Source: Bispira polyomma
Taxonomy: Eukaryota
Assembly: GCA_965649765.1 (NCBI GenBank)
Contig: OZ287753.1
Span: 77,128,001 to 77,192,000 of the forward strand
DNA: 64,000 nucleotides
Direction of reading: 5' to 3'
The translations under genes were made by a program, and so were the position numbers. The number at the start of each line of letters is the position of its first letter. Positions within the stretch are counted from its first letter, which is position 1. Positions 1 through 64,000 of this stretch are shown here, piece by piece. The notes beneath the pieces are model-generated. The model was not told the origin of the DNA and did not search any database. It was given only the letters and a program-made list of their open reading frames with translations.

Positions 1-1965
1 ACACTCTGGTTTCAGACAGTTAATATTTAAAAACTTGCCCATTTACGTATATAAATGCTATGCCTTCGATTCCTATATTTACCATTCTCGTTATTCAATT
101 GTGGTCACCTTAACATATATCATACATGTAAATTTGACATGTAAGATTTTTAAATATGTACACTTATAGGTGAGATTAGATAAGTAGCTAATTAATTCAT
201 TATTTTTAAATAAAACAAAATTCTAGCAGACTAAAAATGTTCATATATATACAATTTAAACCTATAGATATAACACTAGTAAATAGATATATTGTAAGTT
301 TATGTATACATTGCCAAGTACCTGTCCCTCGGTTCTTTAACTAGTACACCTTTGTGTACTTTACCTCTTTTCTGCTTGGGTGAGTCCGTGTCAGATGAAG
401 ATCTCTTGGTGGTTATGCTCACGGGGTTGTCTGACTGCCTCCATCTGTTCTCTTTTTTCAGCATCAACAAAGTAACTATCACTTCTACCTTGGTCTTGTC
501 TTGTGGGTACATAGCCTCGGTTACTATCCTCCATGTTATGTTTTTTGTGGGGATAATCTATAAGGGATCTTCTAAAGAAAGCTTCCATAACAAAAAAACT
601 CAGTTGACATACACAGGCTACTTTGTTGTATTCTCCTAAATTGGCAATAGAAGTGTTCCGACAGAGGAGCATGTGTAGAGCAACCACTTGTGTGGTGAAC
701 TTGTATTCGATCTCACACCATAAACATGTGAATATAGAGTTGTTATTGCTGTACTTAGCAGTGATAGGTTTCAGACCTTAACAAGTTTCACAGTGAGCAC
801 TCTGCTCGTACTATTGCCTGACATATATGGAGATCAGTTAAACCACAATAAAGACAAGTAGATTTCCTTGGTTCAACTGCATATACATCCATGATTGCTT
901 ATTATCTGTAGATCAGTGGTCGTTTAGCTATCAAACTCTGTGGTTTATATAGTGTGGTGTGCTGTTGTAACATGTATAAGCCCTGTATTGTTCTCAAACA
1001 TACTTTTGACGTATCTTTGACGTTACTTGACAAAGATTTCATGATATATCGTATAAAAAGAACCTGTTTGCTTTGGTATATCAATTTGGTTTAAAAAAGG
1101 AAGAAAAGATTAGCTTAATGTTGATATAATTATGTTGACAGATTGAGTCAGTATATCATTCAAGACTCCAGAACTAGATTGATTAGATAGTTACCGTAAT
1201 AACTTCCTGATTAGTAGTTGTTTTTTATTAGCGTTAAACGACTACAAATTAAATCATTTGATGGATAACTGTAATTATTAGTTATAGAGAGAGTGTTCGT
1301 ATGGTTAGTATGAATTAATTATTACACCTATATATTTGTGTTTTGATCAGATATTGCCACTGTTAGATATTATAGATGCGTGAATTTTAATGAATACTGA
1401 ATAACAGTTTTGTAGTATTTCATGAAGATTGTTGACATTGGGTGTGTAGGTTGGTTTGGACTTGAAAATTATAAAGTGTGCTCGACTTCTTTGTGCTTCC
1501 TCACTTTCTTCAAAGCGACAGTATTTTTATAAGATATCAGGTTTTAGGTTGAGGTTAAACTTAATTCAATAGTACAGTTTAGATGTATTTCTCTATTTTT
1601 ATTTTGTGCGTTAGGTTAACTGAATTAGAGGAGAGATTATTTTTGGTTAACAATGGATAAAAGTGTTCAAATGCATTTCTAGGTTGACATAAGTTATGAA
1701 ATTTTGGTTTTGGGTTAGGCTTAACTGTGGGTGATAGTTTATATGGTTTTTTCTTGTTTGGTGTTTGCAAGATAAGGGTTACTTATTTTTAGTTTTTTTT
1801 TTAATAACAAAATACAGTGGCAATATTTCAACATAACATTTCTTAAAGTTAAGTTACACACTTGATTATCCTCATTTATAAGTAGGTAGCATATATTATT
1901 ATAGGTTAACATTAATGGTTTTGCTAAAACTAAACAAACATTACAAAGAAGTATAATACATTGAG

Positions 1966-4900
1966 TCAAATATAACTATATAATGTTATAAAGAGATCTA
2001 TATGTTTCATTAAAATTCCAAGTTTACCATGTTGGGTATATACTCTAATGTCTAAGCTTAATCTATACTTTAATAAATACAAGAACTTTTGAAAAGGCAA
2101 ATCTTTATCAATTTTCTTACGCTTACTAATATAATATTTTCCACTCAATATAACATAATTAATAACATAAAAATATTTTCTTTCAATAGTGGGTTTACCA
2201 AACAGAACATCAAGAACAGCATGTCTTACAGTAAATGGTACAAGGTTACTTAGCCATATATCTACCTGATTCCAAAAGTACTTTGCGTCTAAGCAATAAT
2301 AAAAATAATGCTCTAGGTTATCTGCATGGTTACAAATATTACAGTTTGGTGAATCTTTAATTTTCCATAGATGCAGTTTATAATTACATGCATATACACG
2401 GTGTAAAATTTTATACTGTGTGCCTAATAAGTACGGATCTAAAATTATTTTATGAGGAAGCACATACACATCTTTCCAATCAATTGATTCTAAAAAGGGA
2501 TAATATTCAACCCATTTGTTTTGACTGGGTGGGGTTGTATATAACCTGATAGCCAAGAACTTGTTTACTTCAGAAGATTTAACATTGGATATGTCTGATA
2601 AGCATTTCTTGGGAGTAGTATTTGAAAATATTAAAGAACTCTTTTTTTTAGTCTTCGATAGCTTACGAAACATATCAGATAAACAGCTTATAATTTTATT
2701 GTATTTCAAATGTGGAATAACAATATTGTATATATCTTCTAGTTCTGTTTTATTCTTAAAAGTTTTTAAATCCGTAGTTGAAATATCTCTCACATAAGTA
2801 ATACCCGCCGCTTCCCAGTCACGATATTCAGTTTCTATAGGCTTATTATCAATTAAGAGTAAAGGATTATAAAAAAGACTTTCTTCTAGCAAGTCATCTA
2901 GACTTTCAATGTCGCTTAGAATAAAATCAAACCATATTCTTAACAAATCAGAATAAAAATGGGACTTAACACTCTTTTGAATATTTACAAATAATTGTTT
3001 TTTAAGAATTTCTGATTTGGCTAGTCCCATAAGGTTTTCTGCTAAAACCTTCCTTTTAACTTCAATACTGTTATTCAGTCTCTCGATCCACATAATTTTT
3101 GCAGAGTATATAATGTTCTTTGTCGTTATCATTGATAAACCTCCAAGTTCTGGAGGTTGTATTAACATTTGTTTGGAAATTAAATGTTTTTTCCCGCTCC
3201 AAAGAAAGTTGAAGAACATAGAATCTAAATCTGCCAGAAGTTTCTGACTGAATGGCAATACATATGCCAGTTGCAAGAGGTGTGGAATCAGTAAAGATTT
3301 GATAACTGTGATTTTGCCTTTTGCAGTTAGTGTCCTGGCTTGCCAGGATTTAAGAATGGCTTTAATAATACGAAAGTTTTCTCTTATATTTAGATTTACC
3401 ATTTCCACTGGATCTACAGAAAACCAAGAGCCAAGTGTCTTAAATGGTTTGCTTAGCCAATTTATACCAATGCTTTCATCTTTGGTAATTGAAGTACCAC
3501 AGTTTATTATAAATGCTTCTGTCTTACTCTTATTAAGCTTCAAGCCAGTGTAGCGATAAAATTCTTCAAAAATTTTTATAGCAAATTTTACTGATGTAGT
3601 AGATGAAAGAAAAAGTATCATGTCGTCAGCTAGCTGACATAATTTTATATGTGTCATTAACATTTATGCCATTAACATTTTCTGAGTCACGCAAAATTAT
3701 GGCAACTATATCAGCTACTAATAGAAATAGTAAAGCACTGATTGGGCAACCTTGCCGGATTCCTCCGGAAAGTTCAAAATATGAAGATAGATAACCATTA
3801 TTCATAACACAACTTTCTGTGTCCTTGTATGAGATACCCACCCATTTTTGAAAATTAGGGCCAAACCCATAATATTTCAGAATTGACTTCAAAAATTTCC
3901 ACTTTACTGTGTCAAATGCTTTTTCAAAATCAGTAAGAAATATAACTCCAGGAATATCTAGTACTCTACAATAGTCAATAATATCTGCTATTAATCTGAC
4001 ATTTTCACCACAGTATCTACCTTCCATGTACCCCACTTGATCAGGATTAATAGTTTCCTTTAATGATAATTTTAGTCTATTACCTAATACTTTCGCTAAT
4101 ATCTTATAGTCAGTATTTAGAATCGATAAGGGTCTCCAAGATTTTAGACATGTCATATCTTTACCCTTTTTAGGTACAAGTTTTATTACACCTTGCCTCT
4201 GGCTTCTCGAAAGTAATCTACTATTAAATGCAAGATTGAAGCTTTCAAAAACATGGGTACTAATTTCAGGCCAAATTTTTTTATAAAATTTGCCTGGAAT
4301 GCCATCTGGTCCAGGAGTTTTATTATTAGCTAAACTGCTTATTTCCTTATCACATATATCTTTAGTACTATCACAAATTTGTGGTATACTTATTCCGTCT
4401 AAATAAGTATTTAGTGCATCATCATACATAGTGTCCTGTACTGAATCGTCAGAATACAGTTTAGAGAGGTAAAGTCTTTGTATGTCTAGTATATCATCTG
4501 ATTTTGTAAGTCGTTTACCATTATGCACTAATGACCGAATATGCTTGTTATTATAATTACTTTTTTCAAGATTTACGAAGAACTTCTCATATTCATCTAT
4601 TAATTTGCATCTTGACCTAACAATGACCCCACCAGCTTTTTCATTATAGAAACTTTCTAGCTGATCCTTGATGAGATTATACTCTTCAATATAGTCTAAT
4701 GATGGAGTAGTACACACTATTTCTTCGAGCTCAATCAGCCTATTATTTAGGTGGTGTACATGTGATTGCTCTTTTTTATGTTTCCTAATAGAAAAGGTAA
4801 TTGACTCTGTTCTTATAATACATTTAATGATGTCCCAAATTAAAGTGCAGTCATTTAGATTGATTGAGTCTTTTACTGTATCAATAATTACTTTCTTCAT

Positions 4901-5681
4901 ATGCGATATATAATTTACATCTGTTAACAGACTAGTATTAAGTTTCCACAGCCCCTTACCTCTCTTTTGTTCTCCCTCTAAAAACAAACAAATTTGTAAT
5001 AGGCTGTGGTCTGACCTAATACTGGGAAGAATATTGATGGTATTGACATAGAACTCTAGACCAGTAGAAATAAGAAAATAATCTATTCTAGATTGGTTTA
5101 CACCATAACGTGTTTTTTCCTGTCTTGTATATCTAATTGCATCTGGATGCTTTATTTTCCATATATCGACAATATGTAAAAGCTCTAATAACTCTAAAAG
5201 TTTTTTGCCATATCCAGGATTTTTTCTGGGACCATGATTCTGGTTTAAATAATCTAAATTTATGTTTAGGTCACCCGCAATGACTATGTTTTCTCCTACG
5301 TATTGTTGGAGCATATCTGTAACATATTCTGCAAATACCAGTTGATCGTGCATTTTATCTATAGTAGGAGCATAAAGATTCACCAAAATATATCTTTTTT
5401 CTGCAAAGGTACAATCAAGTAATACAAATCTACCATTGGTATCATGTTTTATATCACATATTAGAATATCAAGACCTCTGGAAATTAGACAAGCCATGTG
5501 AAAATATTACTTCACCATTCCACTGACTTTTCCATTCACTTTCACATTCAAGTACTGAATGAGACTCTTGTATGAAATAAACTCCTGTACCTTTACCCTT
5601 TAGCCACTGAAAGACTGCCTCTCTCTTTTGTCTGTTTCTCAACCCTCTAACATTCAAGCAAAATAAATTAAGACTTTCCAT
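1966..5681 (-). pseudogene. LINE ORF2: apurinic endonuclease + reverse transcriptase + C-terminal CCHC finger, two frameshifts (~5480, ~3640)
   Basis: APE motifs LNVRGL, FIQESH, NLYAP, AGDLN, SRIDYF, SDH; RT motifs PGPDG, WRPLSILNTDYKILAK, DFEKAFD, GIRQGCP, QLADD; CNIC..EH..YYC. Split over ORFs 5469-5681, 3626-5497 and 1966-3663. Confidence 0.95.
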
Positions 5682-6209
5682 TTTAAAGCTTTAGCAAACA
5701 ATATTGTTAACTCGCTAGTAAATAAAATACTACACTTTCATGAAAAAAAAATAATAATAATAATATAAACCACACCATCGCTATGGGTAAAATAAAGACA
5801 ATATTGATAATCAAGAAAGACGTGAAATATTTATATTTGCCACAGCTAATTGTAAAAACAAAAAAAGATGGATTAACAAAGCAGAACATCCTGTTTGAGA
5901 AAAAAAAAAGGTGCTGTGCTTTGGAGAAATTATAATTCATTTTGATACCACATTAAATACCGAATTATTTCGATATTCAGTACCATTGAATAATACTGAA
6001 AAGGACCAAAATAGAAAGAGGTAGATTTATTTACTAATATTTTAACCCATTCATATAATTTAAGAAGTCAAGTTTCAAAGAACTGAAATCTCAGCTGTAA
6101 ATCTGAGTTGGTTGTAGGACCATGTAAAGAACTTATGTGTGTATCATATATGCCACATAAAATATAAGTATTTAATTTACACTTATTTACTTTTTATAAT
6201 TATCAACCC

Positions 6210-6250
<41 letters not shown>

Positions 6251-6703
6251 CATCATGACAATTATCAAAATTAACAAAAGCTAAAGTGTATATGTAATTG
6301 TACAGTACTTACTTTTACTTTGAAAACTTAGCATTTACTGCTTTGAAGCCTTTGTGATTTTTTTTTGTTAACCAATTGATGCCCAGGAGAATATTTGTTT
6401 CAACACAATTATAAAAGAAAAAGCTAACAGAAACAGAATAAAGTGGACAAACATCTACTTCTGGTTTACAGAATATGGGATATCATTTGTGAACAAGAAC
6501 TATTTGATGTACCAGATAATAAACATTGGATATAGGTGCAATGCTTTATTTTTTCAAGTGGTTTTCTCGGGGGGTGGGGGGGGGTGGGGGGGAACCCTTT
6601 ACCATATATGTGTTACAATAGTTAAAGTTTTTTATAGCATTTCAGTTCATTCATACAAAAAGAACAAAGTTTTTCATAATGTTTAAGCACAATTGTAAAG
6701 AAA

Positions 6704-6975
6704 TTATAGAGTTTCTCGTATTTCAGCAATAATTTTACCAAGCATGTTTCTACCACTCCATTTTTCAGGATTCCAGATATTGTCATCAGTAAGAGAGATC
6801 CCAGCACCCCAGTATTTATCGCTGGGATTCGCTTCGATTAAGGTCTTGTTTCCTGTATTCTTGAGGTATGTTGCCAACTCAGGATTTTGAGTGAACTTAG
6901 CCTGGATACCTGCTTTCATTATAGAATCACACTCCCTTTTCCATGTATCAACCTTGTAGTTTCTTACTTTCCTAT
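6704..6975 (-). pseudogene. C-terminal half of a NADAR (YbiA-like) domain, probably the end of the LINE ORF1
   Basis: Frame reads RKVRNYKVDTWKRECDSIMKAGIQAKFTQNPELATYLKNTGNKTLIEANPSDKYWGAG...WSGRNMLGKIIAEIR, containing the NADAR motifs AKFxQN, LIEAxPxDxYWG and GxNxLG. Same strand as ORF2 and ~1 kb upstream of it. Confidence 0.88.
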
Positions 6976-8540
6976 CCTGTTTCTCTTATGATTCTGTCCA
7001 TTCCTCAGTTTAGGTATTCTGTTGTTTTAACATAAGTAAAAGGTGATTTCTTGATTTGATAGGCTGTGTGTTGTTTCGTTTCTCAGTTTAAAGTTAGTAG
7101 TTAGATTAGGTAGTAATAATATTTTATTAATTAGCTTCTTTCTATGAAAGATTGTTGTTTATTGGTTCGTTTTAGTTTAAAAGTAGATCAGAATAATGTA
7201 TGATATTTTCTAAGTATGAGTGTACTGTCTCGATACATGTTGGTGCTTGGGTTGTTTGGTGAATGACTATTTATAAACTAAGTTTTTATCAAGCATATTT
7301 AAGGACAGACTGCTTTGTTAACAGAATATATGTAATGAGTAAATATCCAATAATTTTAAAGGTTGGATTGCTTTGATGTTGGCTATTAGCTTGTTACATT
7401 ATATTCTGGTATTCAGTTCTCTTTGAAGTTTACCATTCCTTTCACTTGTCTAGGTGTCGGGTTCTGATGTTTTGTTAACAATATTATCATTATGGATCTT
7501 ATTTCTTACTGTATATGTTTTGTGATATGATTATTGATTAATTAGATGACTCAATACCAAATATTCAAGATTCTTTAATTGTTGTATACATTACAGGTTT
7601 GTTAGTTATATTTATAAATGTATAATTACCATATATATTTATTTTGGGGCTTACGAAATACATAAAAAATAGGTAATGATTCCCTTTTTATATTGATCAA
7701 ATGGTATGTTTGTTGCTGTTAGTTGGTGATTACATGTATTATTCCTCATAATGTCTGCCTGTAATAATAACACGGAGCAAATGGTTGTTGTTAATTCCAA
7801 GAAAAAAAGGGTAAACAACCTGGGTTACCTAAACTTATAGTTAAATTAGGTAAACCTGATGGTGCAACTACACCGTCAGATGATTCTGGTGTCTGTAAAA
7901 AAAAATTCTCAAATGTTACCAGTTAAAAAACCTGTCACTTCACATGCTGTAATGAATGATAGTTCAGTGGTTGAGGCTGTGGTAAGTGAGGTCCTCCTAC
8001 AGAGAAGACTGTCAATTGTAATGATGTTGATGCGAGTGCAGATGACTTTTTAGATGGTAAACTTGTTAACAGCAAACTGAAGGCTGTCTTAAATAAAGAA
8101 TTTTGTTTAGATCAGTCAAGATTCCTACGCGTGCATTGATTAAAGTCTAATGTGTGGATTCATATTTATCCAAAAGACGCCAATGGTTTGGTTGAAAATT
8201 TTATCAATCTAAGTATGAAAGCTTTCAATGTTTTGATTTATAATTTAAAAATGGTCAAACAGCAGCTGTGTCTAAAGGGCCTTGCTAACCGGCTCCGGTG
8301 CGGTACGGTCCGAACATTTATGTACGACACGATCCGACGATGTCAGATGGTGCTTTTACACTGGATCCGGTACTGCAACTGATTATGTGCTAGAAAAGTA
8401 TGACATGCTCACCTTTTTGGATATATAAAAGTTATTTTACCTTTTTGCATCCTTGTTGAAAGAAGCAGGAAGTTTCAGTTGTTTACAGTTTTTAATTACT
8501 AACACTCGATAATCTCTCATTATTTTAGCCGGATATTACA

Positions 8541-10252
8541 ATGGGAAACACTAATGAGGTAAGTTTCTCCAATTTTTTTAAATCTATCACTATTAATTAA
8601 ATACTTCTAAAATACTGCAAATGGATTATATGTAATAGGTTGATAGACTAGATGTATTTTGCACAGTAATTAATTTAGTCAAGTTAGTAAAACTATTTAT
8701 TATACTAATAGTCACTTAGTATTTTATTCTCAATTGTGATGAACTTGTATATATTTTATCATTTTCATATGCATGTACTCTATGTTTTAAATGTTGGAAT
8801 AAACTATATCTATCTATCTCCCCATCTATCTCTCACTTATAGATGTGTATTTCTACTATATTTCTAAGATTGCAGCCTTAGTTTCAAAGGACCGTTATAA
8901 TTCCAGTCCATGAAGTAATACTGAATAAACAATATTTTCCAGTGTATTTGATAATATTGTATCTGTAAAGTTAATAAAGGATCAAAATTTAATAAATTCC
9001 TATTATAACACAGAATGAAAATCATGATACAGAAGAAGACCTACTATTGTTGCTGCTGCTTCAGAGACGACAGAAACTGAGAAAAAGGAAATGGGGCCAT
9101 GAAATTAACCAGAGAAGACAGGAACTGGGTGAATATCATCGCCTCATTCAAGGGTTGAGGCAGGATCCAGAAAGGTTTTTTACTTATTTTCGGATGTCCT
9201 GTGCTCAGTTTGATACACTGACCCAAATTATAAGCCCCCATATCAAGAAACTTAACACAAATTATAGGCGTGCCATCACAGTGGAAGAAAGGCTGGCTGT
9301 TTGCTTGAGGTTCCATGCCACAGGAGATTCATTCACTACTATTGCTTTCAGCTTTAGAATGAGGATAACAACTGTGGGGCAAATTGTAGATGAGACATGT
9401 GAGGTACTTTGGGATGCTCTAGTAGAAGAATACATGCCTAAACCAACAACTGCAATGTGGAGTGCCATTTCAAGCAAGTTTTTTGATCTTTGGAATTTTC
9501 CGAATTGTATTGGAGCCATCGATGGGAAGCATGTTGTGATACAAGCTCCACCAAATTCAGGCTCAATGTTCTTCAATTACAAAGGGACATTTTCCATTGT
9601 GCTTATGGCATTGGTTGATGCAGAGTATGCCTTCATAGCGGTTGACATTGGTAGCTATGGCAGTAACAGTGATGGCGGTATTTTTCGTGATTCCCAAATG
9701 GGAAAAGGTCTCGAACAGGGTATATTGAATGTCCCCTCTACAAAAGTCATTCAAGATGCTCCAGAATGGGGACTGCTTCCTCATGTGGTTGTAGGAGATC
9801 CTGCCTTTCCACTGAAACCGTATCTAATGAGACCTTTTCCAGGTAAACAGCTTAAGGATGATCAGCTTGTATTCAATTATCGACTATCCAGAGCCAGGAG
9901 AGTATCGGAAAATGCTTTTGGGATCCTAACCAAACGATGGAGAGTCTTTCAGAGAAGGTAAAATGTGAGTGTTGAAAGGGCTGAAAGAGTTGTCAAAGCC
10001 ACATGCATTTTGCATAATTTTCTACAGAAAGATGGTGCCTCCCACCCTGGTGAAAGATGTGCTGATGATCTGCCCAGTAATGACAATACAGGTGCTGGAC
10101 TGACAGACATACCAGCTAGTATGTTAAGTGGTAACCGAACCAAACAGGAGGCCAAAAAAATTAGAGAAACTTTCAAAGATTATTTTAGTTCAGATGCTGG
10201 AAAAGTTAGTTGGCAGGACACCGCCATTCAACGAGGACAGATACCTGAATGA
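8541..10252 (+). pseudogene. Harbinger DDE transposase (HARBI1-like); exon 8541-8558, exon 9014-10252; one in-frame stop at 9959-9961
   Basis: FRMS..F..L, IGAIDGKH, VVGDPAFPL, FNYRLSRARRVSENAFG, ATCILHNF. ORFs 9047-9961 and 9965-10252 share a frame; the GT..AG intron is in phase. Confidence 0.93.
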
Positions 10253-10533
10253 ACATTACAATGCTGTGTTTGTGCTACAACAAATATATTTTTATGTCAT
10301 GGTATATATGTATGTGGTAATTGTAACAAATAAAGTGATAACCATATGATACACATACATTTTATTGCATTGAATATGCAATGAGATAATTATTGTTTCG
10401 TAAATCTCATATAGAGCAAAATACAGACCATGAAAAGGTATATAAAAAGTATAGCAAATAAAGTATAACCAATTTATTCAAAGAGTAATAAAAGTTTATC
10501 TACAAATTTTCATAGGCATAACTGCCATGGCTT

Positions 10534-12077
10534 TCAATGTTCTGCATCTGCTGCAGAAAATCTGTTAGGATTAGTCTGCAAATTTTGGGACGCATTATAA
10601 TTTGTTGCAGGGATTTGTTGATTACTTGGTCCCTGCATCCCTGCATGGCTTGCAGTTGGTGTATGGTACACCTGAGGAAATGCTGTGTCGTACACAAGCG
10701 GCTGAATTTTTATTCTCAGCCCTGCTCGTGTGCGCTCATCTAAGCCTTGCATAGTTGGCATGAGGCTCAGGAATAAGTGCATGTCAGGATTGTCTTTGTA
10801 GGGGTTCTCCTGTACTGGTGCAGCCTCCCTTTTGTTCTCGAGATATGTTATAATTTTCTGACTCAGGGGGTCCACATCTTTGGACTTTCTTCTCCTCTTT
10901 CCTATTGGGGTGTCACCTAGTTGAGGAGTGCTTGAGCGTGACAGTGGCCTACTGGTGGCTGCAGTCTGTTTAGGAGTGGTGATGTCATCATCCTCGTACA
11001 TGACAGACTCCATGTCACTGTCATGCCCCTCCTGTGACTCGGGCAAAGACAGACTCTCAATCCTGTCGCAATCAAAGTTGGAGCTTGTTCTAAAATTGAA
11101 AGATAAAATTTCCTTTATAATCGTACAAAAATATTACTGCAGAAACACTAAAAATTTCTTTTAAACACAGAAGATGTATGTAATTACAATACATATGTAT
11201 CACAGTGACGTCATTGCCCCTAATCAGCACATGTATGGGGGGGGGGGGGGTTTGCTCACTCTATACTACTACTCTCTTGTAAGCCACACATGGGTATTAC
11301 TTGTAAATCACCAGCTGTAAGATTGTCAAAAAGATATTCTTTGTATCTATACTTACATCTTGCCTGTGGTATGCCTCTGTAGAAAGGCCATTTCCTTCAC
11401 AAACCTCCAAGGCTTCTTTTTTTCGGCTGCCTGTCCACTGACGGTTACTTCACTCTTTTGATTCCTGCGATAGGTATCGCGCAACTGACGCCACCCCCAC
11501 TTTGCAACTTTCACTGAGAGACAAGTAAAAGACATAATTCAGATTTTAGCTATGACACAGCTGAAAATGCAACACTTTTAGAATCAGCTTACCCATTATT
11601 ACATGATTTTTTTTTTATTTTGAGGTTACTACTGCTCACATTTTTGCAAAGTTCAAACAAAAATGTTTATATTCCCTGATCCAGTAATTCTAATAATTCT
11701 GATAATTAAAATCAACCTCTGTTAATATTTTAGCAATATTACCAGCATATATTTCTAGTAATTCTAATTATTTAATAATTAAAATCCCCTCTTAAAATAT
11801 TTTAGCAAAATTTCTACCCTGAAGTCTCTCTATATTGCCGGCTAAAAAAAATGACATTATTTGTAATGAGAAACAGTATCAAGCTGACCTACGCTAATTA
11901 TAGTAAATAAAAACAATATAATTACATACCTTGTACATCCAAAGTTGTTGAAATTTGTTTCCAAGCATTCTCCCGTGCATCTCTATTAGAGTAATCTCTA
12001 CAGGCCTTGTCAAAAAGACAAGGATACCTCTCTACTTGAAGAATTAAATCTTCTTTTTTTTTATCTGGAAACTCCAT
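10534..12077 (-). CDS. Harbinger accessory DNA-binding protein, MADF (Myb/SANT-like) + BESS, three exons (~12077-11930, ~11513-11357, ~11089-10534)
   Basis: Exon 1 MEFPDKKKEDLILQVERYPCLFDKACRDYSNRDARENAWKQIS; exon 2 WRQLRDTYRR...PWRFVKEMAFL; exon 3 ends with BESS-like PDMHLFLSLMPTMQGLDERTRAGLRIKI. Canonical splice sites. Confidence 0.85.
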
Positions 12078-51407: not shown

Positions 51408-52277
51408 ATGATGCGTCTGAACATTTGCACAGTCATGTTGCTGGGCTGGTTAGTATATTACCAGGTGGGGGCGTGCCCCAGGCAGTGTGAGTGCCGCATA
51501 AATGTGTTGTTGTGTAACAAGGCCACTCAAGAAACTATATATCAAAAAGCCTATTTGATAACAACTGCTCATTTCAGTGAAAGCTACGTCGATTTTGCCC
51601 AATTACTGCGGGCGTATCCAAAACTGAATTATATAAGTGTCAGTGGGTCGACTGTGGTGAACTGTCCCAGTACAGTGGGTATAACTGTCATAGGGGCTTG
51701 CCCAAAACAGTATGATGTCAATGTCAGGGAGAATGTTAAAGAACGTGATATTAAAGTTTACAACAGCGACAATACAGGAGAAGACAGTGTCATAGGTTTA
51801 TCAGTAACCTTAGTAGCAACCTGGCTAGGAATTGTAAGCGCTTTTATTCGACGCTTTCGTATATGGTGGAAGGCCAGGCAAAAAAAACCAAGACAACCAA
51901 ATAACAATGATATCGAGTGTGGAGATAAAAATCTGCTTGAACAGATTGACCCCATGCCAATCCAACCGAGGTCTGATACACACAGAGACTGTGGGATACC
52001 TTCCCCCATTGGAGAGTCAACCTTTGTGGGTTATAGAACCAGACCTATTAGAGACACTCCTGGCTTCCATGAGATACCTTCAAAAGGCATTACACCTAGG
52101 ATTATAGTGCCTCAACCCAGCCCGGGACCACCTCTCCGACCCAGACCAGGGTCACCTGCCTGTCCTCGTTTTGACTCCTCTGGTTATGGAACCCCTTCTG
52201 CTCAATTCTACCAGGTAGATGGAGACGTTGCCATAAAAAAAACACGTTTTGCAAGAGAACCTCCTCTGGAACTTTAA
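51408..52277 (+). CDS. Type-I membrane protein: signal peptide, LRRNT-like Cys cap with 1-2 degenerate LRRs, TM helix, Pro-rich cytoplasmic tail
   Basis: CPRQCECRINVLLC; YPKLNYISV; TM VIGLSVTLVATWLGIVSAFI followed by RRFR..KARQKK; PxxP-rich tail; intact 289 aa. Confidence 0.8.
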   Translation: MMRLNICTVMLLGWLVYYQVGACPRQCECRINVLLCNKATQETIYQKAYLITTAHFSESYVDFAQLLRAYPKLNYISVSGSTVVNCPSTVGITVIGACPKQYDVNVRENVKERDIKVYNSDNTGEDSVIGLSVTLVATWLGIVSAFIRRFRIWWKARQKKPRQPNNNDIECGDKNLLEQIDPMPIQPRSDTHRDCGIPSPIGESTFVGYRTRPIRDTPGFHEIPSKGITPRIIVPQPSPGPPLRPRPGSPACPRFDSSGYGTPSAQFYQVDGDVAIKKTRFAREPPLEL

Positions 52278-54899: not shown

Positions 54900-55342
54900 A
54901 CAATAATTTAAGTATACAAGCCGTCAGAACCTCGTGCAGGTTAACCATTATGAAACAATGTCCATGTTCCTGGTGTTTACATGCCATTAAGATAAATTCG
55001 CATATTTTCCTTGAACTGGTCATTGTCCTCTGGCTCCACAAGAATGCCTCTTCTAGTTGGGTGTGATATACCCAGGTAGTTGGGACTGGCCCATTTCCGA
55101 ATATTGATACTCGGGAAATCAAGGTTGACGGAGGCGGACACATAATGTCCTAATGCCGCCACCATATCTACATCCCTGGCGTCAAGGGCTTGAACCTGGG
55201 TTTCTACCAGGTCTTCCCAGTAACTTGCAAGGGCAGCCACTTGGGTGCGTTTCAACCGCAGCTTAACTTTTCCCCCAGTCAGTAACAAACTGTCATCGCT
55301 TGGGTCCCACATCATAGTCAACAGATCACTGATATGATTCAC
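54900..55342 (-). pseudogene. Second PC4-like gene of the complete Polinton
   Basis: KLRLKR.Q..AL...W..L...LGHYVSASV...PSINIRKW...HPTRRGILV; the C-terminal CKHQEH..C lies in the adjacent frame. Confidence 0.65.
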
Positions 55343-57584
55343 GAATGGTCGACTGAAATGAATTTTAAAAATTGATTAGGTATTGGATTTCAGTGTACAA
55401 GCTGAGTAACAGGTTGGTTGTACTTTAATCAGAACAAGCAAACTGTTACAAGATCCCTGTGTGTGAAACCTAAAAGATAACTATGTACAGGTGGTTAGTA
55501 TAAGATTGTAAGTAAAGATTAGTAATACCACAGCAGAGTTGATAATCAACATATAAATCTTTCAAATGATGGTAGTATAACAACACTTTATCTATTTGAC
55601 ATACTAACACTGTACAAACATTTACTATAGAATGGACACATCAGTCAAATGCTTAAACGATTCCACTTGACATATATTCTACATTATATTAGAATAATAA
55701 TATTAGAAACTCACCACTAAAAGCAATTCCAATTGACGTGTATTATCAGTTATCCATCTTCCACTTAAGGAGTTGAGGGTAGAATATAATGTAATACTAA
55801 ACTGAACAATCTACAGTTAGCTTTACTTACTTTAAACTGTCGTTCGTGTTATTTACAGGTTGATCTACCTCCACAACCTCGGTATCCTTCTCTGTTGCTG
55901 CTGTTGCTGCTGCAGTGCAATTGTCAAACACTCCACTAAAACAATACAGTTGTACAGACGAATTAGTACTGATTAAGTGGTGTAGTTAGTATATAACATG
56001 TAAACTTAGGGCTGTAGCTTTAATGTATTATAGATTTGCACGATACAACAGTCTGTCTATACACTTATAGATATGGTTAACTCGGTTCAACCTTGATTAT
56101 ATATATATTACATATATATGTATATATGTGTATGTATCATGTGTATTAGTTAAAATGTACAAGTAATGTGTACCCCTTCCTAGGTTTTTTTCCTTGAAAC
56201 CCGGTTGCTCCCTTGCTGGTACTTGGTCGTTTTCTACAATACAATACAAACGCACTTAGTTCTATAACACTAAGTAATGTGTGTGTCTACATGTTAATGT
56301 ATGGTTAACACATAATCTCTTGTTATACAAGTCATCTAATCTCTCCATTTAAAGTAATTATAATTCTAAGTATACTCACTCTGGAGACATTATTCCTGAT
56401 AATTCCCTTTAGTAACACTTAACGTTGAAACTACTGTCACTTAAATATTGAACAAAACGGTAACTTCAAGTAAACTGTGAACTTTTAACGTGGTGTTGGA
56501 GTTTTATTATGTTGGATACCCAAAGCTTTTTAGTGATAAGTTCAGTGTTACGTTATGATTGGGTTAGAATATTTCTAACATAAACACTAGGGTAATTTCT
56601 ATTGGATGTTTGTTCATGACCTCGACTATTCAGCCCAGTTCCATCTTGGTAAATCTATTCCAGTCAAGCCACATAATTAGACCTCCCATATGTGAGTACC
56701 ACAGAGTGCAGTTAACAATAAAAGTATGTAAGTGCAGACCTCACATCTTCAGAGTATGCTACGTTAAGTAGATTTTTCCTGGGTATAGTTCCAGTGTGCT
56801 TTTTAAAAGATCCTAGATGTACAGATGGGGATAATAGTATTTATAATGCTACATTAAATATGTCCTGAATATTAGTTGACTATCTGTATGTGTTAGTTAG
56901 TATATGTTTCTATCTGTACTACTGTATTATGTTAAACAAAGTTGGAAATAAATCTACAATTAAAGTTCATTAGTAGTTTGAGTTCTGAGTGAAAGTGTCA
57001 AGAGATCGCCTCCACATAGATCAGCTGACAGTAAAGTTGTTGACGAGAGCACCACAACTGAGAGAGCATCTGTACATTCTATTTTTATTCCTACTACTTT
57101 GTCAGTTAAATGTCATCAGTCTGAGCAGCTTAGTGTTGTTGTTGATGTTGTTGTTGTTGTTCTTCTGCAATGTGGTTATTATACCAGTTTTAGTGTATTC
57201 ACCAGCTACAAAACTATGTTATTTTGACCTTACCCGTTTTCAACAGTGTGTGGTCTTTATTAGCAGTGTTACTGTAATCAGCATTTGACAAGCGTAAAGA
57301 GTTCAAGCAATATGGTATTTTGACCTATAATAGTGTCCCCAATGACATATCTCTTAAACGGGTACTAATTTTCTCTTACTACGGTTAATAAAGTATTCCT
57401 GTTGATAGACTTAATTAAGTGTATTGTATGTTCTAGATTAGACCTTGGCATGCAATGTCCCTATTCACTTTTCTTTTACTATGGCTAATTAAGTTCTCCT
57501 GTTAATAGACTTAAATTAGGTGTAACATTACCCCAACATTATTTGATTGTCACACAATCTTACTGTGGCATGAAGACCTTGTTG

Positions 57585-57806: not shown

Positions 57807-60389
57807 TGCGAGCAGTGAGAAAACAAAAACAATTCAGTAAACTTTCGGTTGATAATATTCGTAGCATATATAATTGAGTAGTGTTTTCTTTATTTAATTA
57901 TGTAAGGAAGCAGATATTTTCAAAATAATAATAGGTTAATGTGTGACCTTTGTGTTAGTATTTTAAGATATTAAATAAAAATTTAAGACGGTGAGGTGTT
58001 GAACTCTATGTTAAATTTCATAGACAGTGAGGTACTTTAAGACCAGATAACTCATCTGTTGCTGCTACTACTGAGACAGAGGACGTTACTACAGGTGTTT
58101 CAGCGGCTCCTACAGGTGCTGGTGTTGACAAACCAGCTGCTACAAGTGTTGCTGTAGCCTTTACTTTACTTTAGCCTTTATGGGTTTAAACATTTCAACG
58201 ACTTTACAATCGAAAGGTGAGGCATCTGCTGCCTGGGGGAGTGTTGTGTCAGGGAGTTTGTCATTGTCAGACATATTGTCATCAAAGAATACCCTAAATT
58301 TAAATACGAATAATTACCCACTTGATATTGACTTACCTTTTGTGTTATATCACAGAAGATGGCAAAATACAACCTACACAATGTAATGTATATATAAACT
58401 TCTACTATGCTCCTTTTTGTTCTTGTTGTTTTGCATTACTACATAATGTTGTCAAATTATTTTTAGTATTAATATAGGCTAGAGTACGATGGTCTGTACC
58501 AAAAACATGTATGTGTAATATACCTCACCTCTGTTTCTTGAGCTTAAAGATGGACACTCCATTTCACATTTCGCTGTTACTTGCAGCTTTTCGTTTTGGA
58601 CAATATATAGTTTGGTGCAATTACAGCTATTGTTAAACATACAGCTTTTTACACTATATATATGTACTCTTCTAAGGGTTACACACATATACTATTGGAA
58701 AATTTAAGTTGCACTGATTTTATTGAGACGTTTATTATCTTTGTCCAGGAAATTAGTCGGTTATTTAATTTGTCGAAGAAATATTTGTCGTTATGAATTC
58801 CACTTTTAGTAGTAACCCTCATTTATCGTACAAAATAAAGAAATTTTTATTTTTTATACAGCCGTTATCGTTGAAATACAAAATGTCATATGAATCCCTC
58901 ATTATAGACTTTCTAGTTTTGAAACAGTATGTGGTTGAAGGGGATATTCAGTGTAAAACTATTGGAAAATCATGTCACTCTTGCGAGATAAAACCAACAA
59001 GAACAATCAGACTTACAGCAAAACATTTGTACAACAATACCACACCTAACAACAATTACTCTAGACAGTAATTTTGCTTGTACGCAAAGAAACTGTCGAT
59101 AAAATACTGATTGAACATATATGGATATCAAGCAGTCAACACTGGTACATGTTGTAGTTAAGCCAAGGTACTTAGTTAAAATTTGCTGTTGTAGATGTTC
59201 TTGCGTGTGGCTGAAATTTGTTTGCCTATTGTAACTCATCTGTAAAATGTAAATGACACTTAATATGAGTGGGGTACGAATTGCACCATAGCTTTAAACT
59301 GAAACAATTATAATTCTGTTAATACAGCATTGCTAGAAAATACATTGATCATATGATAGACATTTTATGACAGACAGGCGGATTATAACCACAAGTAGTA
59401 GTCAAGGTACTCTAGTTAAGTTAATGACAAGTTAAATATACCTTGATCAGATTGCTCTTTAGATCATTTTAGCCAAAATAGTGTAGTTACGATATTGCAT
59501 CAGTTTGCTCTTTAAATCATTAAGATGTCATCATGGTGGTTACCATACATTCTAGAATACAAAATGGTAATACGGTATAAATTTAATATACAACATGCTT
59601 TTATAAATTATACAGCTATATAAAGTATTTACAAAAGTAGTGTTTCTATTGCTCTGCAAGAGGTTGTCAATAATTTACATAATGAAAATAGTGTTTTTAG
59701 CACTCTAATAGCTTGTCACATGTAGTTGCATTTTTTCATATCCAATAATTCATCAACCTTAATCTTCATCATCAGATGCCTAAACCTAAAATATAAAATG
59801 TATTGTTATATTATCTAATTATATAGATAATGGGGAAAAGACCAGTGACAAAGATGGTGATAAGAGACCAGTGACTAAGGATATGATAATGTTGACTTAA
59901 AACAAAATTAAAAATTTTATTCATGTATTGTATTTTTATAAAATACATACTTACCCAGTGAAACGGTGTGCTTACCGGTAGTTCGCCTGCCGGTGACGAC
60001 CAATCCCTAAGAGAAAAGGGGTTATAGACCGGTCGCCTCCGGCGACACTCGGCCCCTTCCAGGGACCGGGGATATCACGTGACCCTGCATGAGAAGCTGC
60101 GCACTGACCATTCTGATTTACTAGAGCCATTTTGTTGAATTAATGAGAAATAACGCTACCCAGTGGGATTTACCGCAGGGCAGGTTGAGTGGGACTCTAA
60201 CCGTTTCACTGGGAGGACCGGGCCGGGGAGTCTAGGAGGGTATCCTTTGGGGTTGCCACAGGGGCCTTCTTCTTTTCCTGCCGCTGGTGGTAGGTGACTC
60301 TAGCCTTGATCTTTGCTTGTACTTGCCTTTCTTTTGAAAACCTTTTCTCATTGCCTCAATTTTATCATAGTTGGCCTAGGTTCACTAAC

Positions 60390-60606
60390 CTGCTTCTACT
60401 AGTTTTTCCTTCATCTGCTCCACTAGATTATAGTTGGAAATGGTACCTCCAGTGATGCTTTTTCCACACTGAAGGCACCTAGGTAGGGTCCTGTAGCAGT
60501 ACAAGCATACCACATGGTGGCATGGCTTCAAATCAACCTTAAAAGGTGTTTTTGTTAGACATATCCTGCATTTAAACGTTTTTTTGGCAGGAGAATTTTA
60601 AAACAT
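60390..60606 (-). pseudogene. IAP-type RING finger gene relic (not in the ORF track)
   Basis: MF*NSPAKKTFKCRICLTKTPFKVDLKPCHHVVCLYCYRTLPRCLQCGKSI; C3HC4 at 60466-60570; several nonsense codons. Confidence 0.8.
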
Positions 60607-61327
60607 GACTTTCCCTGATGGTTTTTTTTTGCTGCAAATGCCAATGTCCCTAAAATTGCAGATCGCAAATTGAATTTTATATATATGTACATAATTAAAA
60701 ATGGAACCAAACTAAATAGAAGAATATAGCATATTCGTTATTGCTACTATGTACATGGTATCAGTGTAACAAATATTCGTCATGTCTGGGAATACGTTTA
60801 TGTACAGTAATGCTAAATGTCTGTTGTAGATCTGAAATTGAATATCATTACATTCTTGAATTACTAGATTGTTTCACCTAGATCACAGGTTTATGATAGA
60901 TTAAGATATTTACAGAAAGTTTAGTTAAATGACCAGTATATTTTAAAAGCCTAAATATTACATAAAGCATTTTTAGTTAAGTCAGATGTTTATAACAGAA
61001 ACAGAATGCCATTTTACATAAATCAGATGTTTATAACAGAAACAGATATTGGCATTAGTTAAAAGCAATATATTTTTTTAAATGACATCTGTCAAAGGCA
61101 TTTAATATGGAAATTTGACAAATACGTTATTATTGCTATATTATATTTAGAATCAAGAACTATATCTATTTGATAGAAATAAAGATTGTTTTGATTTGAA
61201 ATTTCCTCTTCTTTAAGGGTATGACCTTCTCCCCTTTTTTACTGCCACCATCCTTTGGTACAAACCAGCTTCGTGTGCACATAATCACATAGTCCTCGTC
61301 GTTATGATAGATCCTCTGAGCGTGTGA

Positions 61328-62148
61328 TCACCATGTTTGCACATCTTCAGTAGATATTACCCAAAGGGGGTCATTTTCTGGCAAGTCATCTACAGCCGAG
61401 GGTTGTGTACATAGATAAGCATTTTCTCTGTGGCGGATTATTGTCTGTACCACCACTATTGTGGAGCCTTTGCTGGGGACTGGCTTTTTTACACCTCTCC
61501 AGTCCAGCTCAGTCCACAATCTTAAGCTTACCTTTAAATAGCACCTCTGCACGTTGACGGTAATGTCTGGAGCAAGGGAAACATTGAAGACGGTCCTAGC
61601 TCTATCCATCATAGCAGCCTCTAGGTTTTGCAACAATTGCTCCCAATGCTCCCTGAGCACTACCATCTCAGCTCTGTTTAGTCTCAGTTTGCTGTCCTCT
61701 TGTATGGTATAGAAAGTGTCATTTATCTGATCCCATGCTTGGGTCGTAGTATTGTTTATGTGTTTGATAATTCCCCTGTGTACAGAGTTAAGCATTTTCT
61801 CTGTGGTGGATTAATGTCTGTACCACCACTATTGTGAAGCCTTTGCTGGGGACTGGCTTCTTTACACCTCTCCAGTCCAGCTCAGTCCACAATCTGAAGT
61901 TACCTGTGAATAGCACCTCTGCACGTTGACGGTAGTGTCTGCAGCAAGGGAAACGTTAAAGTTGGTCCTAGCTCTATCCATCATAGCAGCCTCTAGGTTT
62001 TGCAACAATTGCTCCCAATGCTCCCTAAGCCCTACCATCTCAGCTCTGTTTAGTCTCAGTTTGCTGTCCTCTTGTACAGTATAGAAAGTGTCATCCATCT
62101 GATCCTATTCTTGGGTCATAGTATTGTTTATGTGTTTGATAATCCCCC
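61328..62148 (-). pseudogene. PC4-like gene of the older element with an internal ~373-bp tandem duplication
   Basis: KLRLNRAEM.VLREHWEQL...LAPDITVNV...VSLRLW...PVPSKG aligns with ORF 54977; 61416-61777 is repeated at 61789-62148. Confidence 0.7.
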
Positions 62149-62381
62149 TAGAAGTAGAACATACCAAATAGAATATGTATACTATACATGTGTATTTGTT
62201 ATAAGTTTAGATGTACATACACTAATATTATCATGGTTATAAAGTTGTTTACATATATATAGGTAAGTTAGTTTGTATGTGATTGTTTTATTGGGTTTTT
62301 TACCTGGTTGCTGTTGCACAAGTTTTTGGTTTGGATCGAGGTACCACCAAAGGGGGCAGCTCATCATCTGACGTATGACTG

Positions 62382-62417
<36 letters not shown>

Positions 62418-62499
62418 TATAATAGTTGTACAGACAGTTAATGGTCATCTCCATAATGGAGATTTTTTCAGATATATTAGACTGGTCTCTCTAGCTCTT

Positions 62500-62610
62500 T
62501 GGTGTTTCTTGCAGCATTTCCAGATACAATAACAAGCGGCAGGAATGATTATAACCAGGCCTACTGCAAGTCATATTCCAATACCCACACACAATCCAAC
62601 ACTGCTTCAA
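62500..62610 (-). pseudogene. Transmembrane-helix exon relic of a type-I membrane protein
   Basis: SVGLCVGIGI*LAVGLVIIIPAACYCIWKCCKKHQR; a nearby 30-bp block is identical to one in the 31433 gene. Confidence 0.45.
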
Positions 62611-62942
62611 TCTATTATAGGTTAATAACAACATGAGTTATATTACTGGCCAAACTGTTATTATACCTGTATGTTTACATGGTGTTATGATTGATATATA
62701 TATATAAACCACATCAATAATAGTGTACATATACATTACTTAAAACGATTACTACATAAACAAGATTCATTTACATAAATGTATACACTACCATTTTCTT
62801 TAATATGTTGAGACGTAGGCTCAGGTTTACCTGTAGTCGGTATGGGCATGTTAGCTTCAGAAACACTACAATATACAATAACACAACTCTAACAAACAGT
62901 ATACACAACATGTATATTATCTTTTAATAAGAGGTTATTGTA

Positions 62943-62997
<55 letters not shown>

Positions 62998-63153
62998 GCA
63001 ATAATACAACTCTATCTAACAAGCAATATACACAATATATATATATATTTTTTTTATAACATTTTTTTTTTTGTATTTTTTTAATTACAATTATTTTACT
63101 CTTTTTAAATATAATTATTTTACAGTCTCTTTCAAACAAAATGTCTAGTGCAG

Positions 63154-63390
63154 TTAATCATCATGGAGAATCATTTTTAAATAGCTGCAGTCTTTGAAAT
63201 GTTTTTTTTTTTTTTTTTGTTCAGCCAGGGGTTCGTCTAAATAATCCAAGGAATGTAATATAACAGAACACCACAAACACTGACATCTGTCACCTAACCC
63301 CGTGTACATAAACCCTGCTTTAGCTAATTATTCGGTTTGAAGCTTTCTAATCTGTTGTAGTAGAGCTTGTAGGCTAGCCAATCTGGACAC
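63154..63390 (-). pseudogene. Second BIR-domain gene, decayed (not in the ORF track)
   Basis: YYNRLESF, a frameshift, then LAKAGFMYTGLGDRCQCLWCSVILHSLDYLDEPLAE(poly-A)HFKDCSYL. Confidence 0.85.
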
Positions 63391-64000
63391 ATACACAGGC
63401 TTTCTTCTTCATACTGAAAATTTTTGAACTTATATCTTAGTTCCTAAGTTTTTCTTGTCAGTACATCCTCCTTCTAAAACTTAATGATGCTGACACTGCC
63501 ACCACACATTCAGCTTTATCCTCTCTTGATCCCTGTCTACCTGCTCTGCTATCTGTGCTAGTACTCGTTTTATTCATATAGTTGAATCTAATCTGTCACA
63601 CATTTTCACTCCAGTATTTACCTTTTTTCTACAATGAAATCTAATTATAACTCAATACCTCACCCTTTATTATTCATAATCTATCTATGGCAATACCTAA
63701 ATTACATATTTTAAAACAATGATAATTACAAATTGAGAGGCTTTGATCAATCTTACAAAACTAGTGTTTCAGAAGTTAATGGAAGGGTAATTGGAGGTTG
63801 CTCATTATTTGTTAAAAAAAGGTGTGTCACTTGAAGTAATTACCTTAACTACACAGTTACAAGCTGTAGCAGTTAATGTATCTCTACACAAACAATAACT
63901 ATATGTTGTATATATATATTCCACCAAGTTGTTAGTTGCACAGAAAGACAAGAGACAATGTACCCTGTTGTAATATTACAAAGGCGGATTAGGTAAAATA

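Follow-up and report, generated by a model that had tools for sequence, protein, structure and literature searches.

Nesting of related mobile elements is already known in a protist, Halocafeteria seosinensis, in which Polinton-supergroup elements (5 PLVs and 9 virophages) are nested in one another and in transposon-rich hotspots; in the available portion of that report, the nesting is read as landing where insertion is tolerated (10.64898/2026.07.28.741278). Ngaros, tyrosine-recombinase retrotransposons found in the EMALE virophages of Cafeteria and counted there over many insertions, offer in the accessible part of that account a model for family-specific preference for resident viral DNA (PMC8547959). 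At eri-6/7 of C. elegans, several Polinton copies, inversions, and remnants share one locus and, as far as the accessible text goes, belong to one Polinton family associated with a host gene and a functional effect (10.1101/2024.01.15.575659). The mollusc pPolB2 group, whose polymerase carries a VSR nuclease insert, is the closest described relative of the element presented below, a putative placement drawn from the available text (10.1101/2023.08.22.554363).

The locus analysed here, referred to as the window, is a 64,000-nucleotide stretch of Bispira polyomma DNA (assembly GCA_965649765.1, contig OZ287753.1, positions 77,128,001 to 77,192,000). Unlike Halocafeteria, a protist with PLVs and virophages, this is a 1-Gb animal genome with canonical Polintons, in hundreds of copies, and nesting is uncommon in the tested families. 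Unlike eri-6/7, the locus holds many Polinton families, and no host gene was seen in the cluster. Its youngest Polinton, family A, is a DDE-integrase element with three copies, in contrast to the Ngaros. Similar to known Polintons/Mavericks (Polintoviricetes, Orthopolintovirales; adintoviruses), A is 20 kb long, has a 6-bp TSD, and encodes a protein-primed DNA polymerase B (pPolB), an rve integrase with a chromodomain, a packaging ATPase, and a double-jelly-roll (DJR) capsid, the gene set by which it is a Polinton/Maverick. Among the differences are that the pPolB of A ends in a NADAR domain and that A carries BIR, two PC4-like, and LRR membrane genes.

The window copy of A spans 20,060 bp (37747–57806) between the ends AGTAGT and ACTACT. 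Genome-wide, A is present as three copies of 20.1–20.2 kb (window, C7, and C9), each with a 6-bp TSD, in agreement with the Polinton ranges applied for TSD (5–8 bp) and length (13–25 kb). The C7 and C9 copies are 97–99% identical and have boundaries identical to those of the window copy but different TSDs, which confirms that the window holds a TSD-bounded Polinton. A long matched TIR (applied range, 100–1500 bp) is absent from the window and C9 copies; in the window copy, the two ends share AGTAGT and ~63 bp at only 76–78%. In the C7 copy, the ends are mosaic, with ~220–350 bp matched at 93–100%. An earlier sequence-only reading had called the element complete, a description that suits its gene inventory but not the state of its genes or ends: the pPolB lies in four frames, the protease and BIR genes are broken, and the ends are mismatched. 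The pPolB is broken in all three copies.

The genes of A are listed in Table 1. The named relatives of its integrase are from bivalves (34–40% identity), and the chromodomain of A and its relatives retains the aromatic residues Y...WxxW. The capsid was assigned from a low-confidence structure model (pLDDT 43), for which the Foldseek matches listed are all DJR capsids (best E 9e-10), including those of Sputnik, mavirus, iridovirus, and PBCV-1; no sequence-level match was found, nor any relative in IMG/VR and a phage set. The pPolB comprises N-terminal C2H2 fingers, a nuclease-like insert that is a candidate counterpart of the VSR insert of the mollusc group (MTES_1575 E 5e-5 and RAP E 7e-3, both under cut-off), and the C-terminal NADAR domain (Pfam E 7e-10). 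The putative adenain-like protease and minor capsid genes occupy the expected positions and are conserved, with no match in Pfam or PDB; the protease is presumably such by its position and a motif. The minor capsid and core-like genes gave no Pfam or database match, and the LRR-N-terminal-like gene gave no significant Pfam match. The model of the second PC4-like gene (54980) has a pLDDT of 91 and a Foldseek probability of 0.99, with a best E of 2e-3.

Table 1. Features of the window (positions in nucleotides from its first letter; strand given where assigned)
Feature	Position	Strand	Evidence or remark
Cys/His-rich accessory gene remnants, B-lineage-arm associated	298..1566	-	
LINE ORF2, L1/Tx1-like by inspection, NADAR frame upstream	1966..6985	-	Pfam NADAR E 1e-27
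PC4-like gene split by Harbinger (8273-12335)	8030..12616	+	
B-lineage arm fragment with RING-like gene	12996..14646		83-91% to Polinton B left arm
Kolobok-like DNA transposon with THAP and P2RX7_C, boundaries tentative	15950..30096		Pfam THAP E 4e-14, P2RX7_C E 6e-13
Remnant N: LRR-N-terminal gene and candidate terminus at 32829	31433..32829	-	
K/R-rich remnant of a core-like gene, 39-bp repeats in front	32962..33200	+	E 0.026, one stop
Remnant M, left part, accessory arm of older Polinton	33217..37746		
TSD, left copy, TGCGAG (6 bp)	37741..37746	+	
A: BIR (IAP-repeat) gene, stop-interrupted	38198..38655	+	Pfam BIR E 2e-16
A: PC4-domain gene	38679..39167	+	Pfam PC4 E 4e-4, under curated cut-off
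A: packaging ATPase	39338..39970	+	Pfam Pox_A32 E 8e-6, above cut-off
A: rve integrase with C-terminal chromodomain	40706..41830	+	Pfam rve E 1e-8, Chromo E 2e-7
A: putative minor capsid gene and K/R-rich core-like gene	41827..42592	+	Position and conservation in families D-H
A: DJR major capsid protein	42589..43866	+	Foldseek on structure model
A: putative maturation protease, frame-broken	43960..44310	+	Position, conserved in D-H
A: pPolB, four frames	44515..49865	-	Pfam DNA_pol_B_2 E 4e-6 on one of four pieces
159-bp inverted repeat inside A (MITE-like or hairpin)	50724..51303		
A: LRR-N-terminal-like membrane protein gene	51408..52277	+	Homologues in D, F, G, H
A: second PC4-like gene	54977..55375	-	PC4/PUR/Whirly fold of model
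TSD, right copy, TGCGAG (6 bp)	57807..57812	+	
Remnant M, continuation past A	57813..57905	+	68% to uninterrupted paralogue, in register at TSD
High-copy MITE	59903..60213		>30 copies at 88-93% among matches listed
Remnant K: RING gene and tandem PC4-like pair	60326..62158	-	
Decayed membrane-gene tail and B-like BIR gene	62463..63707	-	BIR region 75-77% to both B copies examined

A sits nested in the accessory arm of an older Polinton, remnant M. An uninterrupted paralogue of the insertion site lies 39 kb upstream, and together with the TSD it bears out the Polinton-in-Polinton nesting that had been proposed. Remnant M is 76–83% identical to C8:36.52 Mb and 81–90% identical to a paralogue 4.3–1.1 kb left of the window; its segment at 33217–34623 is inverted and split by a SINE at ~33520–34190. 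The right-hand tip of M before A is a plus-strand membrane-gene tail, broken by A. A decayed minus-strand frame had been read through the TSD; against the paralogue, this frame has 3 synonymous and 13 non-synonymous differences and six stops. The plus frame across the TSD has 6 and 10, respectively, and is open for ~70 codons. The gene interrupted by A lies on the plus strand, and the minus-strand frame is discarded. The right end of Polinton B abuts the inside of an M arm, the one junction on which an insertion of B into M depends; neither a partner end nor a left TSD was found for B.

The flanks of A are a patchwork of decayed arms that stem from four or more other Polinton lineages and extend over at least 116 kb, and the pieces match more than the two older relatives that had been the minimum proposed. 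Identities differ by lineage (M, 76–90%; K, 82–92%; B-like, 75–91%), and parts of the remnants, which occupy both strands, have undergone local inversion or short duplication. The left arm of Polinton B is found 20–22 kb left of the window, and a D-like Polinton end is found at extension coordinate 75065. Remnant K is 82–92% identical in DNA to an arm at C9:38.41 Mb that immediately precedes ATPase-integrase-capsid genes; its PC4-like pair (61331–61810 and 61865–62158), which arose with a tandem 372-bp duplication, shows 27–33% to the 54980 gene of A, as had been suggested. A label of Baculo_F for the 61331 protein (Atlas cluster match, recognition 1245) was rejected, the family having a PC4/PUR fold. 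The B-like BIR gene is likewise a paralogue (63157–63360, Pfam BIR E 5e-11, 38–43% to the BIR of A), as is the PC4-like gene at 8030/12336, whose halves are separated by a Harbinger element. These flank paralogues were checked against an origin from single-copy host genes and matched Polinton families instead.

Other proposed paralogues held in part. Two LRR-N-terminal membrane genes were recovered: one in remnant N (31436), which matches a family H accessory gene at 37% as well as LRR clusters in the Atlas and has a 75–88% copy at C8:38.66 Mb, and one within M (34354–34569). The third candidate (62463–62736) is decayed and resembles the tails of membrane genes in families G and H (E 3e-4). 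The core protein paralogue placed at 32989 gives a weak match only (Table 1). A RING gene (60388, Pfam E 3e-6) and a RING-like one (14096–14646) are present but are not cargo of A; RINGs are absent from A and families D–H and derive from the more distant B and K lineages. The extra AGTAGT terminus claimed at 32829 is no more than a candidate: the motif occurs 50 times in the window versus 48 expected, and in 114 kb no end with a matching TSD pairs with this occurrence, which also shows no significant resemblance to real termini.

Harbinger, Kolobok-like, LINE, SINE, and MITE insertions share the remnants with the Polinton pieces. The Kolobok-like transposon at 15950..30096 has a 19-bp inverted repeat and holds an L2/CR1-like LINE fragment (27993–28772). 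Whole-flank DNA searches were saturated by SINE and MITE sequences, with the best 40 of 882 and 40 of 4490 candidates scored. Family relations were taken from an oriented protein tree, and of the DNA comparison the identity matrix alone was used; a tblastx self-comparison with summed statistics gave noise. Contigs of three sequencing runs, possibly the source samples, represent the left flank at the depth of single-copy DNA; one of them extends over 31987–33545 with no differences. Among the matches listed, there was no sequencing-run piece spanning a junction of A and no RNA sequencing run holding the locus.

Five other bounded families (D–H) have the same gene order as A and integrases about 60–70% identical to that of A. 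Every one of the five carries BIR, PC4, and PC4-like genes, and four (D, F, G, and H) also have the LRR gene, so that the accessory toolkit is shared as had been supposed: BIR, PC4-like, and LRR-membrane genes belong to the normal cargo of Polintons in the Bispira polyomma genome. TSDs have no fixed motif. The outer 4.5 kb of the left flanks of independent located insertions of the sister families was compared with 40 control windows, and Polinton DNA was found in 0/29 and 0/40, respectively. The upper 95% bound for 0/29 is 10%, or ~20% allowing for the sensitivity of the panel to old arms, which is ~50% (7 of 13 tiles of this cluster found without the cluster's own genes). In the controls, blastn matches were not scored as Polinton where they fell on the SINE within the G copy, on a short repeat common to B2 and A, or, in control L120, on the LINE-like beginning of B2; NADAR alone was matched in one control window. 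When both flanks of five family representatives were considered, Polinton DNA was present in 1/10. Polinton DNA as a background is put at 1–3% of the genome. Neither a genome-wide enrichment of Polinton insertions in Polinton DNA nor a general rule of Polinton-into-Polinton targeting across families is supported.

The chromovirus integrase, which like that of A has a chromodomain C-terminal to the rve integrase, is said to target heterochromatin, in work by Gao and colleagues of 2008. That the integrase chromodomain steers all Polintons of this genome to silenced, Polinton-rich chromatin, as had been raised for this locus, is nevertheless very improbable. A and its relatives do have a chromodomain with Y...WxxW, and capsid loci cluster (23 close pairs versus 5.5–7.5 expected), but ~9–10 of these pairs are read as same-family inverted or segmental duplicates. 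Different-family pairs within 100 kb may reach up to ~2x expectation, a point in favour of targeting. A role of the chromodomain in site choice is suggested, as conjecture, in the accessible part of one report (PMC8502044). Unlike the chromovirus case, the chromodomain-bearing Polintons show no sign of repeat-rich flanks: by a crude proxy, repeats cover 7.6% of 26 flanks and 13.3% of 40 control windows (P 0.067), the reverse of what heterochromatin targeting predicts. The D–H chromodomains match that of A, yet none of the 29 insertions has a Polinton flank, and Polinton DNA as a general chromodomain target is largely refuted. Just as hard to credit is a single Polinton of unusual size and accessory content as the source of the flanks. 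B-lineage elements measure at least 22 kb from the RING arm to the right end, and their additional genes include RING, Cys/His-rich, and membrane genes; one piece of the left flank and one of the right have homologues at C8:38.66–38.70 Mb, separated by 36 kb. Against this, the A-clade-type arms (M, N, D-like) and the B/K-type arms match separate loci with different divergences, B has its own right terminus, and a pair of outer termini was not found; this mosaic of matches largely refutes the single-element alternative. Somewhat less remote, though still improbable, is a piRNA-cluster-like trap kept by the host as a source of silencing RNAs from Polinton fragments, which is compatible with a pile-up and would add selection for retention. 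The fragments are dense, old, and from multiple families over at least 116 kb, and piRNA clusters exist in molluscs according to the available part of one study (PMC6128900), but the remnants lie on both strands, with inversions.

A specific preference of family A for other Polintons or their neighbourhoods, which would make it a Polinton hyperparasite, is unlikely but is the most credible of these alternatives. The integrase might be tethered by the chromatin of resident Polintons or by proteins on them, or integration might take place while A co-replicates with another Polinton. All three copies, with three different TSDs, are inside other Polinton DNA or no more than 2.8 kb away from it: the C7 copy separates the capsid gene of a distant family from that family's LRR/BIR genes, and the C9 copy stops 2.8 kb short of a D-family element. 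The chance for the two non-discovery copies is 1e-4 to 5e-3 if 1–7% of sites qualify, and in the accessible text on the Ngaro types favouring EMALE virophages, 91% of type 1 lie in EMALEs versus 8–14% of types 3 and 4 (PMC8547959). However, only two copies are independent and only one lies strictly inside a remnant, and P ranges from 0.001 to 0.14 with the unit counted: 3/4 flanks of A hold Polinton DNA versus 1/39 others (P 0.001, the flanks being non-independent; left flanks alone, P 0.11), 1/2 copies versus 0/34 lie strictly inside a remnant (P 0.056), and both flanks compared give 2/2 versus 1/5 (P 0.14). Moreover, family A was singled out after the fact, and its chromodomain has no obvious difference from those of D–H. 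A tentative extension, doubtful to the same degree, is that A, besides preferring sites within or next to other Polintons, remains mobile with ends that do not match, sometimes re-equalised by end-to-end copying during replication, as suggested by the mosaic ends of the C7 copy.

The locus is probably a local pile-up, in which several Polinton lineages integrated independently into a repeat-tolerant stretch, followed by decay and retention. Separate lineages are favoured over one element because the flank pieces match different families, loci, and ages, and a pile-up is favoured over a targeting rule because the sister families do not aim for Polinton sites. Speaking against this reading are the positions of the other two copies of A, the right end of B against the inside of an M arm, the possible excess of different-family capsid pairs, and the sensitivity of the flank panel, at which old arms could be missed. 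These lineages would have arrived at different times in a stretch that measures 116 kb or more and decayed there, undergoing local inversion and short duplication. The integrase of A, the newest arrival, made a 6-bp staggered insertion in the membrane-protein gene tail of the older arm. Integration may have little sequence preference, with retention where it is harmless, and every dead 20-kb element would enlarge a dispensable target that other transposons may exploit too.

Polinton-in-Polinton nesting is clearly illustrated at this locus in an animal, together with a paralogue of the empty site. In the literature on Polintons, as far as its accessible parts extend, no published test of target choice or of the role of the integrase chromodomain was found, and the flank test gives a first answer on target choice: the chromodomain-bearing sister families do not sit in Polinton DNA. 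If A does seek Polintons, the integrases of A and D–H would form a natural comparison for the determinants of target choice, and such a preference would offer a route for accessory-gene swapping between Polintons.

The TSD-bounded element proposed by the sequence-only reading is borne out: family A is a Polinton with an AGTAGT start and an ACTACT end, flanked on either side by TGCGAG. Its description as complete holds for the gene inventory but not for intactness, as pPolB is spread over four frames, the protease and BIR genes are interrupted, and the ends are mismatched. The minor-capsid, core and protease genes carry putative labels taken from position and conservation, and the named relatives of the integrase are bivalve proteins (34–40%). 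In the 1.035-Gb assembly scanned, the window occupies C6:77,128,001–77,192,000 and further copies of A lie on C9 (98.8% identical) and C7 (93–98% by segment), each with a separate 6-bp TSD, and all four candidates found in a genome search with the left end of A fall in these three loci. The two ends in the window share the hexamer and only ~63 bp, at 76–78%, a mismatch also present in the C9 copy; the different TSDs of these two copies indicate that A was mobilised with mismatched ends. The C7 copy has mosaic ends, left and right matching over 220–350 bp as a matched TIR, which suggests copying of one end onto the other during replication.

The target of A is an arm of an older Polinton, M. 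A paralogue of the site, located 1.4–1.1 kb left of the window, is 90% identical to 37526–37746, passes one TGCAAG, and then runs in register with 57813 onward; it is a natural empty site. The decayed minus-strand frame previously read through the TSD has 3 synonymous and 13 non-synonymous changes and six stops, whereas the plus frame has 6 and 10 with ~70 open codons and is the coding one. The interrupted frame forms the tail end of a gene predicted to encode a membrane protein; in the paralogue this gene ends four codons beyond the site. The surroundings of A match C8:36.52 Mb, a locus whose LRR gene and small helical gene resemble accessory-arm genes of the sister families G and H; A therefore lies within an arm of M. 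Its 6-bp-TSD insertion is of the integrase type.

The flanks form a mosaic of such remnants, spanning at least the stretch between −27 and +89 kb. Every flank paralogue maps to Polinton arms at other loci rather than to host genes, and several lineages differing in age are present, in agreement with the at least two older relatives originally proposed. The suggestion that the flanks are instead one giant element is accordingly given very little credence. Left of the window, the right terminus of a decayed element of the distant lineage B (C6:77123685, 4315 bases from the window) adjoins the interior of a second M copy at a position homologous to window 35186; no left end of B was found in the searched DNA on that side, and this one junction points to a second nesting, of B in M. 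The extension also contains a D-like terminus, at coordinate 75065 (P 0.003). In a capsid tree of 21 rows, A, D–J, B/K and the C7 host separate, the long branches being unsure. A Harbinger, a Kolobok-like element, LINEs, a SINE and MITEs break up the same remnants.

Six relatives of A were sampled, five of them (D–H, 15.9–21.6 kb) with bounded ends, a perfect TSD in four and a 5/6 match in one, and the gene order of A. BIR, PC4 and PC4-like genes are found in 5/5 and the LRR gene in 4/5, so that the shared accessory toolkit is standard Polinton cargo in this genome. The RINGs, which had been counted among the paralogues, occur in neither A nor D–H and belong to the B and K arms. An extra AGTAGT terminus at 32829 remains unproven: the motif is at chance level in the window (50 observed, 48 expected), no partner was found, and there is no likeness to real Polinton ends, despite five CRE half-sites following it (three or more at only 2/99 control sites).

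Coordinates of features in the window, its extensions and other loci
Feature	Location	Description
Family A	window 37747–57806	BIR, PC4, ATPase, rve integrase with chromodomain, DJR capsid, pPolB with NADAR tail
Compared end regions of A	window 37747–37930 and 57600–57806	
C7 copy of A	C7:7035504–7055701	
NADAR domain of A	window 44515–44930	terminates pPolB, as in D–H
Separate NADAR frame	window 6704–6985	upstream of LINE ORF2; again near similar LINE in C7 flank
M arm	window 33217–36963	76–83% to C8:36.52 Mb
B-lineage arm fragments	window 298–1566, 8030–12616, 12996–14646	matches to B-lineage arms
RING, PC4-like	window 60326–61454	82–92% to C9:38.41 Mb, just upstream of ATPase, integrase, capsid genes (family K)
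BIR region	window 62954–63707	75–77% to family B
Decayed B element	13.7–6.6 kb left of window	pPolB, integrase remnant, capsids, protease
Minus-strand motif	~23.9 kb left of window	like F-related subfamily terminus, RING gene beyond; possibly a further element end
Decayed transposon, presumably Kolobok-like	window 15950–30096	THAP and P2RX7_C domains, internal repeats, L2/CR1-like LINE inside
SINE	window 33520–34190	four tandem 138-bp units; very high copy number in reads
Inverted capsid-gene pairs	C9:50.40, C8:43.04, C6:9.00, C11:26.19, C1:89.04, C11:52.81 Mb	closely related genes, opposite orientation, 5–31 kb apart; possibly inverted replication dimers or local inverted duplication
K-family Polinton	C9:38.41–38.42 Mb	directly followed by second capsid-protease remnant; duplicated small gene, double BIR; another small cluster
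Homologues of window 31513–32090 and 58050–58644	C8:38.66–38.70 Mb	separated by 36 kb; perhaps a single large element or a further Polinton cluster

Insertion-site preference was examined at the left-end regions of the 40 next-ranked full-length capsid loci among 99 scored (875 candidates), with 40 evenly spaced genome windows as controls; the outer 4.5 kb was scored against 137 Polinton proteins, 30 cluster proteins and a Polinton DNA library. Termini were located at 31/40 loci, and two pairs are segmental duplicates, leaving 29 independent insertions. None of the 29 has a Polinton match in the outer 4.5 kb besides generic SINE or short-repeat matches, and none of the 40 controls has one (one NADAR-only and one LINE-like match). 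Of the nine loci without a located end, four show own-family DNA (rearranged or extended copies) and five no Polinton gene. Among the five bounded representatives, one of ten flanks holds a B remnant, 1.6–2.3 kb away. The upper 95% bound from 0/29 is 10%, or more safely ~20%, because the independent panel recovers only 7/13 tiles of this cluster. Polinton sites are therefore not enriched in Polinton DNA for families D–I, and, as far as the measured families go, the broad targeting claim does not pass its own test. Guidance of all families by the integrase chromodomain is hence most improbable. The chromodomain residues in the tested families are the same as in A, no fixed TSD motif occurs there, and the flanks are not richer in repeats than controls (7.6% versus 13.3%, P 0.067, a crude proxy).

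In favor of general targeting, capsid loci are non-randomly placed: 230 loci include 23 neighbors within 100 kb, the expectation being 5.5 under uniform placement or 7.5 under 5-Mb jitter (P 2e-4). By our reading of the identities, 9–10 of these pairs would be same-family inverted or segmental duplicates and 9–10 would join different families; since a count of at least nine pairs, whatever their kind, arises with P 0.10 to 0.34, cross-family clustering is at most modest. Among 173 listed loci, density per 10 Mb is highest on C11 (3.8) and sparse on C12–C14 (0.3–0.8). A preference specific to family A is a somewhat better, if still doubtful, alternative. On C7, A has the capsid gene of a distant Polinton on one side and the LRR and BIR genes of that Polinton on the other. 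On C9, a D element lies 2.8 kb from the end of A and a capsid-protease remnant 8.8 kb from its start, the immediate neighbors being a LINE and unassigned DNA. By flank, A is in or near Polintons in 3/4 cases versus 1/39 (P 0.001), but other units give P 0.11 (left flank), 0.056 (strictly inside) and 0.14 (both flanks seen), and with two copies, which cannot settle a preference, the lead is modest. A trap resembling a piRNA cluster is rated as unlikely.

The nested Polinton in a multi-family cluster is real and well documented. Passages of earlier reports describe PLVs and virophages residing inside other viral elements (10.64898/2026.07.28.741278), so that nesting of the same kind is already described in protists, as well as an insertion preference of Ngaro (PMC8547959), a suggested role of the chromodomain (PMC8502044), Polinton definitions and the pPolB2-VSR group (10.1101/2023.08.22.554363), and several Polintons at the eri-6/7 locus (10.1101/2024.01.15.575659); in the matched text of a paper on coral elements (PMC11131425) the term "nested" is absent. 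Among the papers listed by the literature searches, none measures the targeting of Polintons by Polintons in an animal, and subscription journals, Repbase and supplements may hold cases. We consider it fairly probable that target choice of Polintons is loose, that inserts would be retained in a tolerant region, and that the cluster may grow as dead elements become safe targets.
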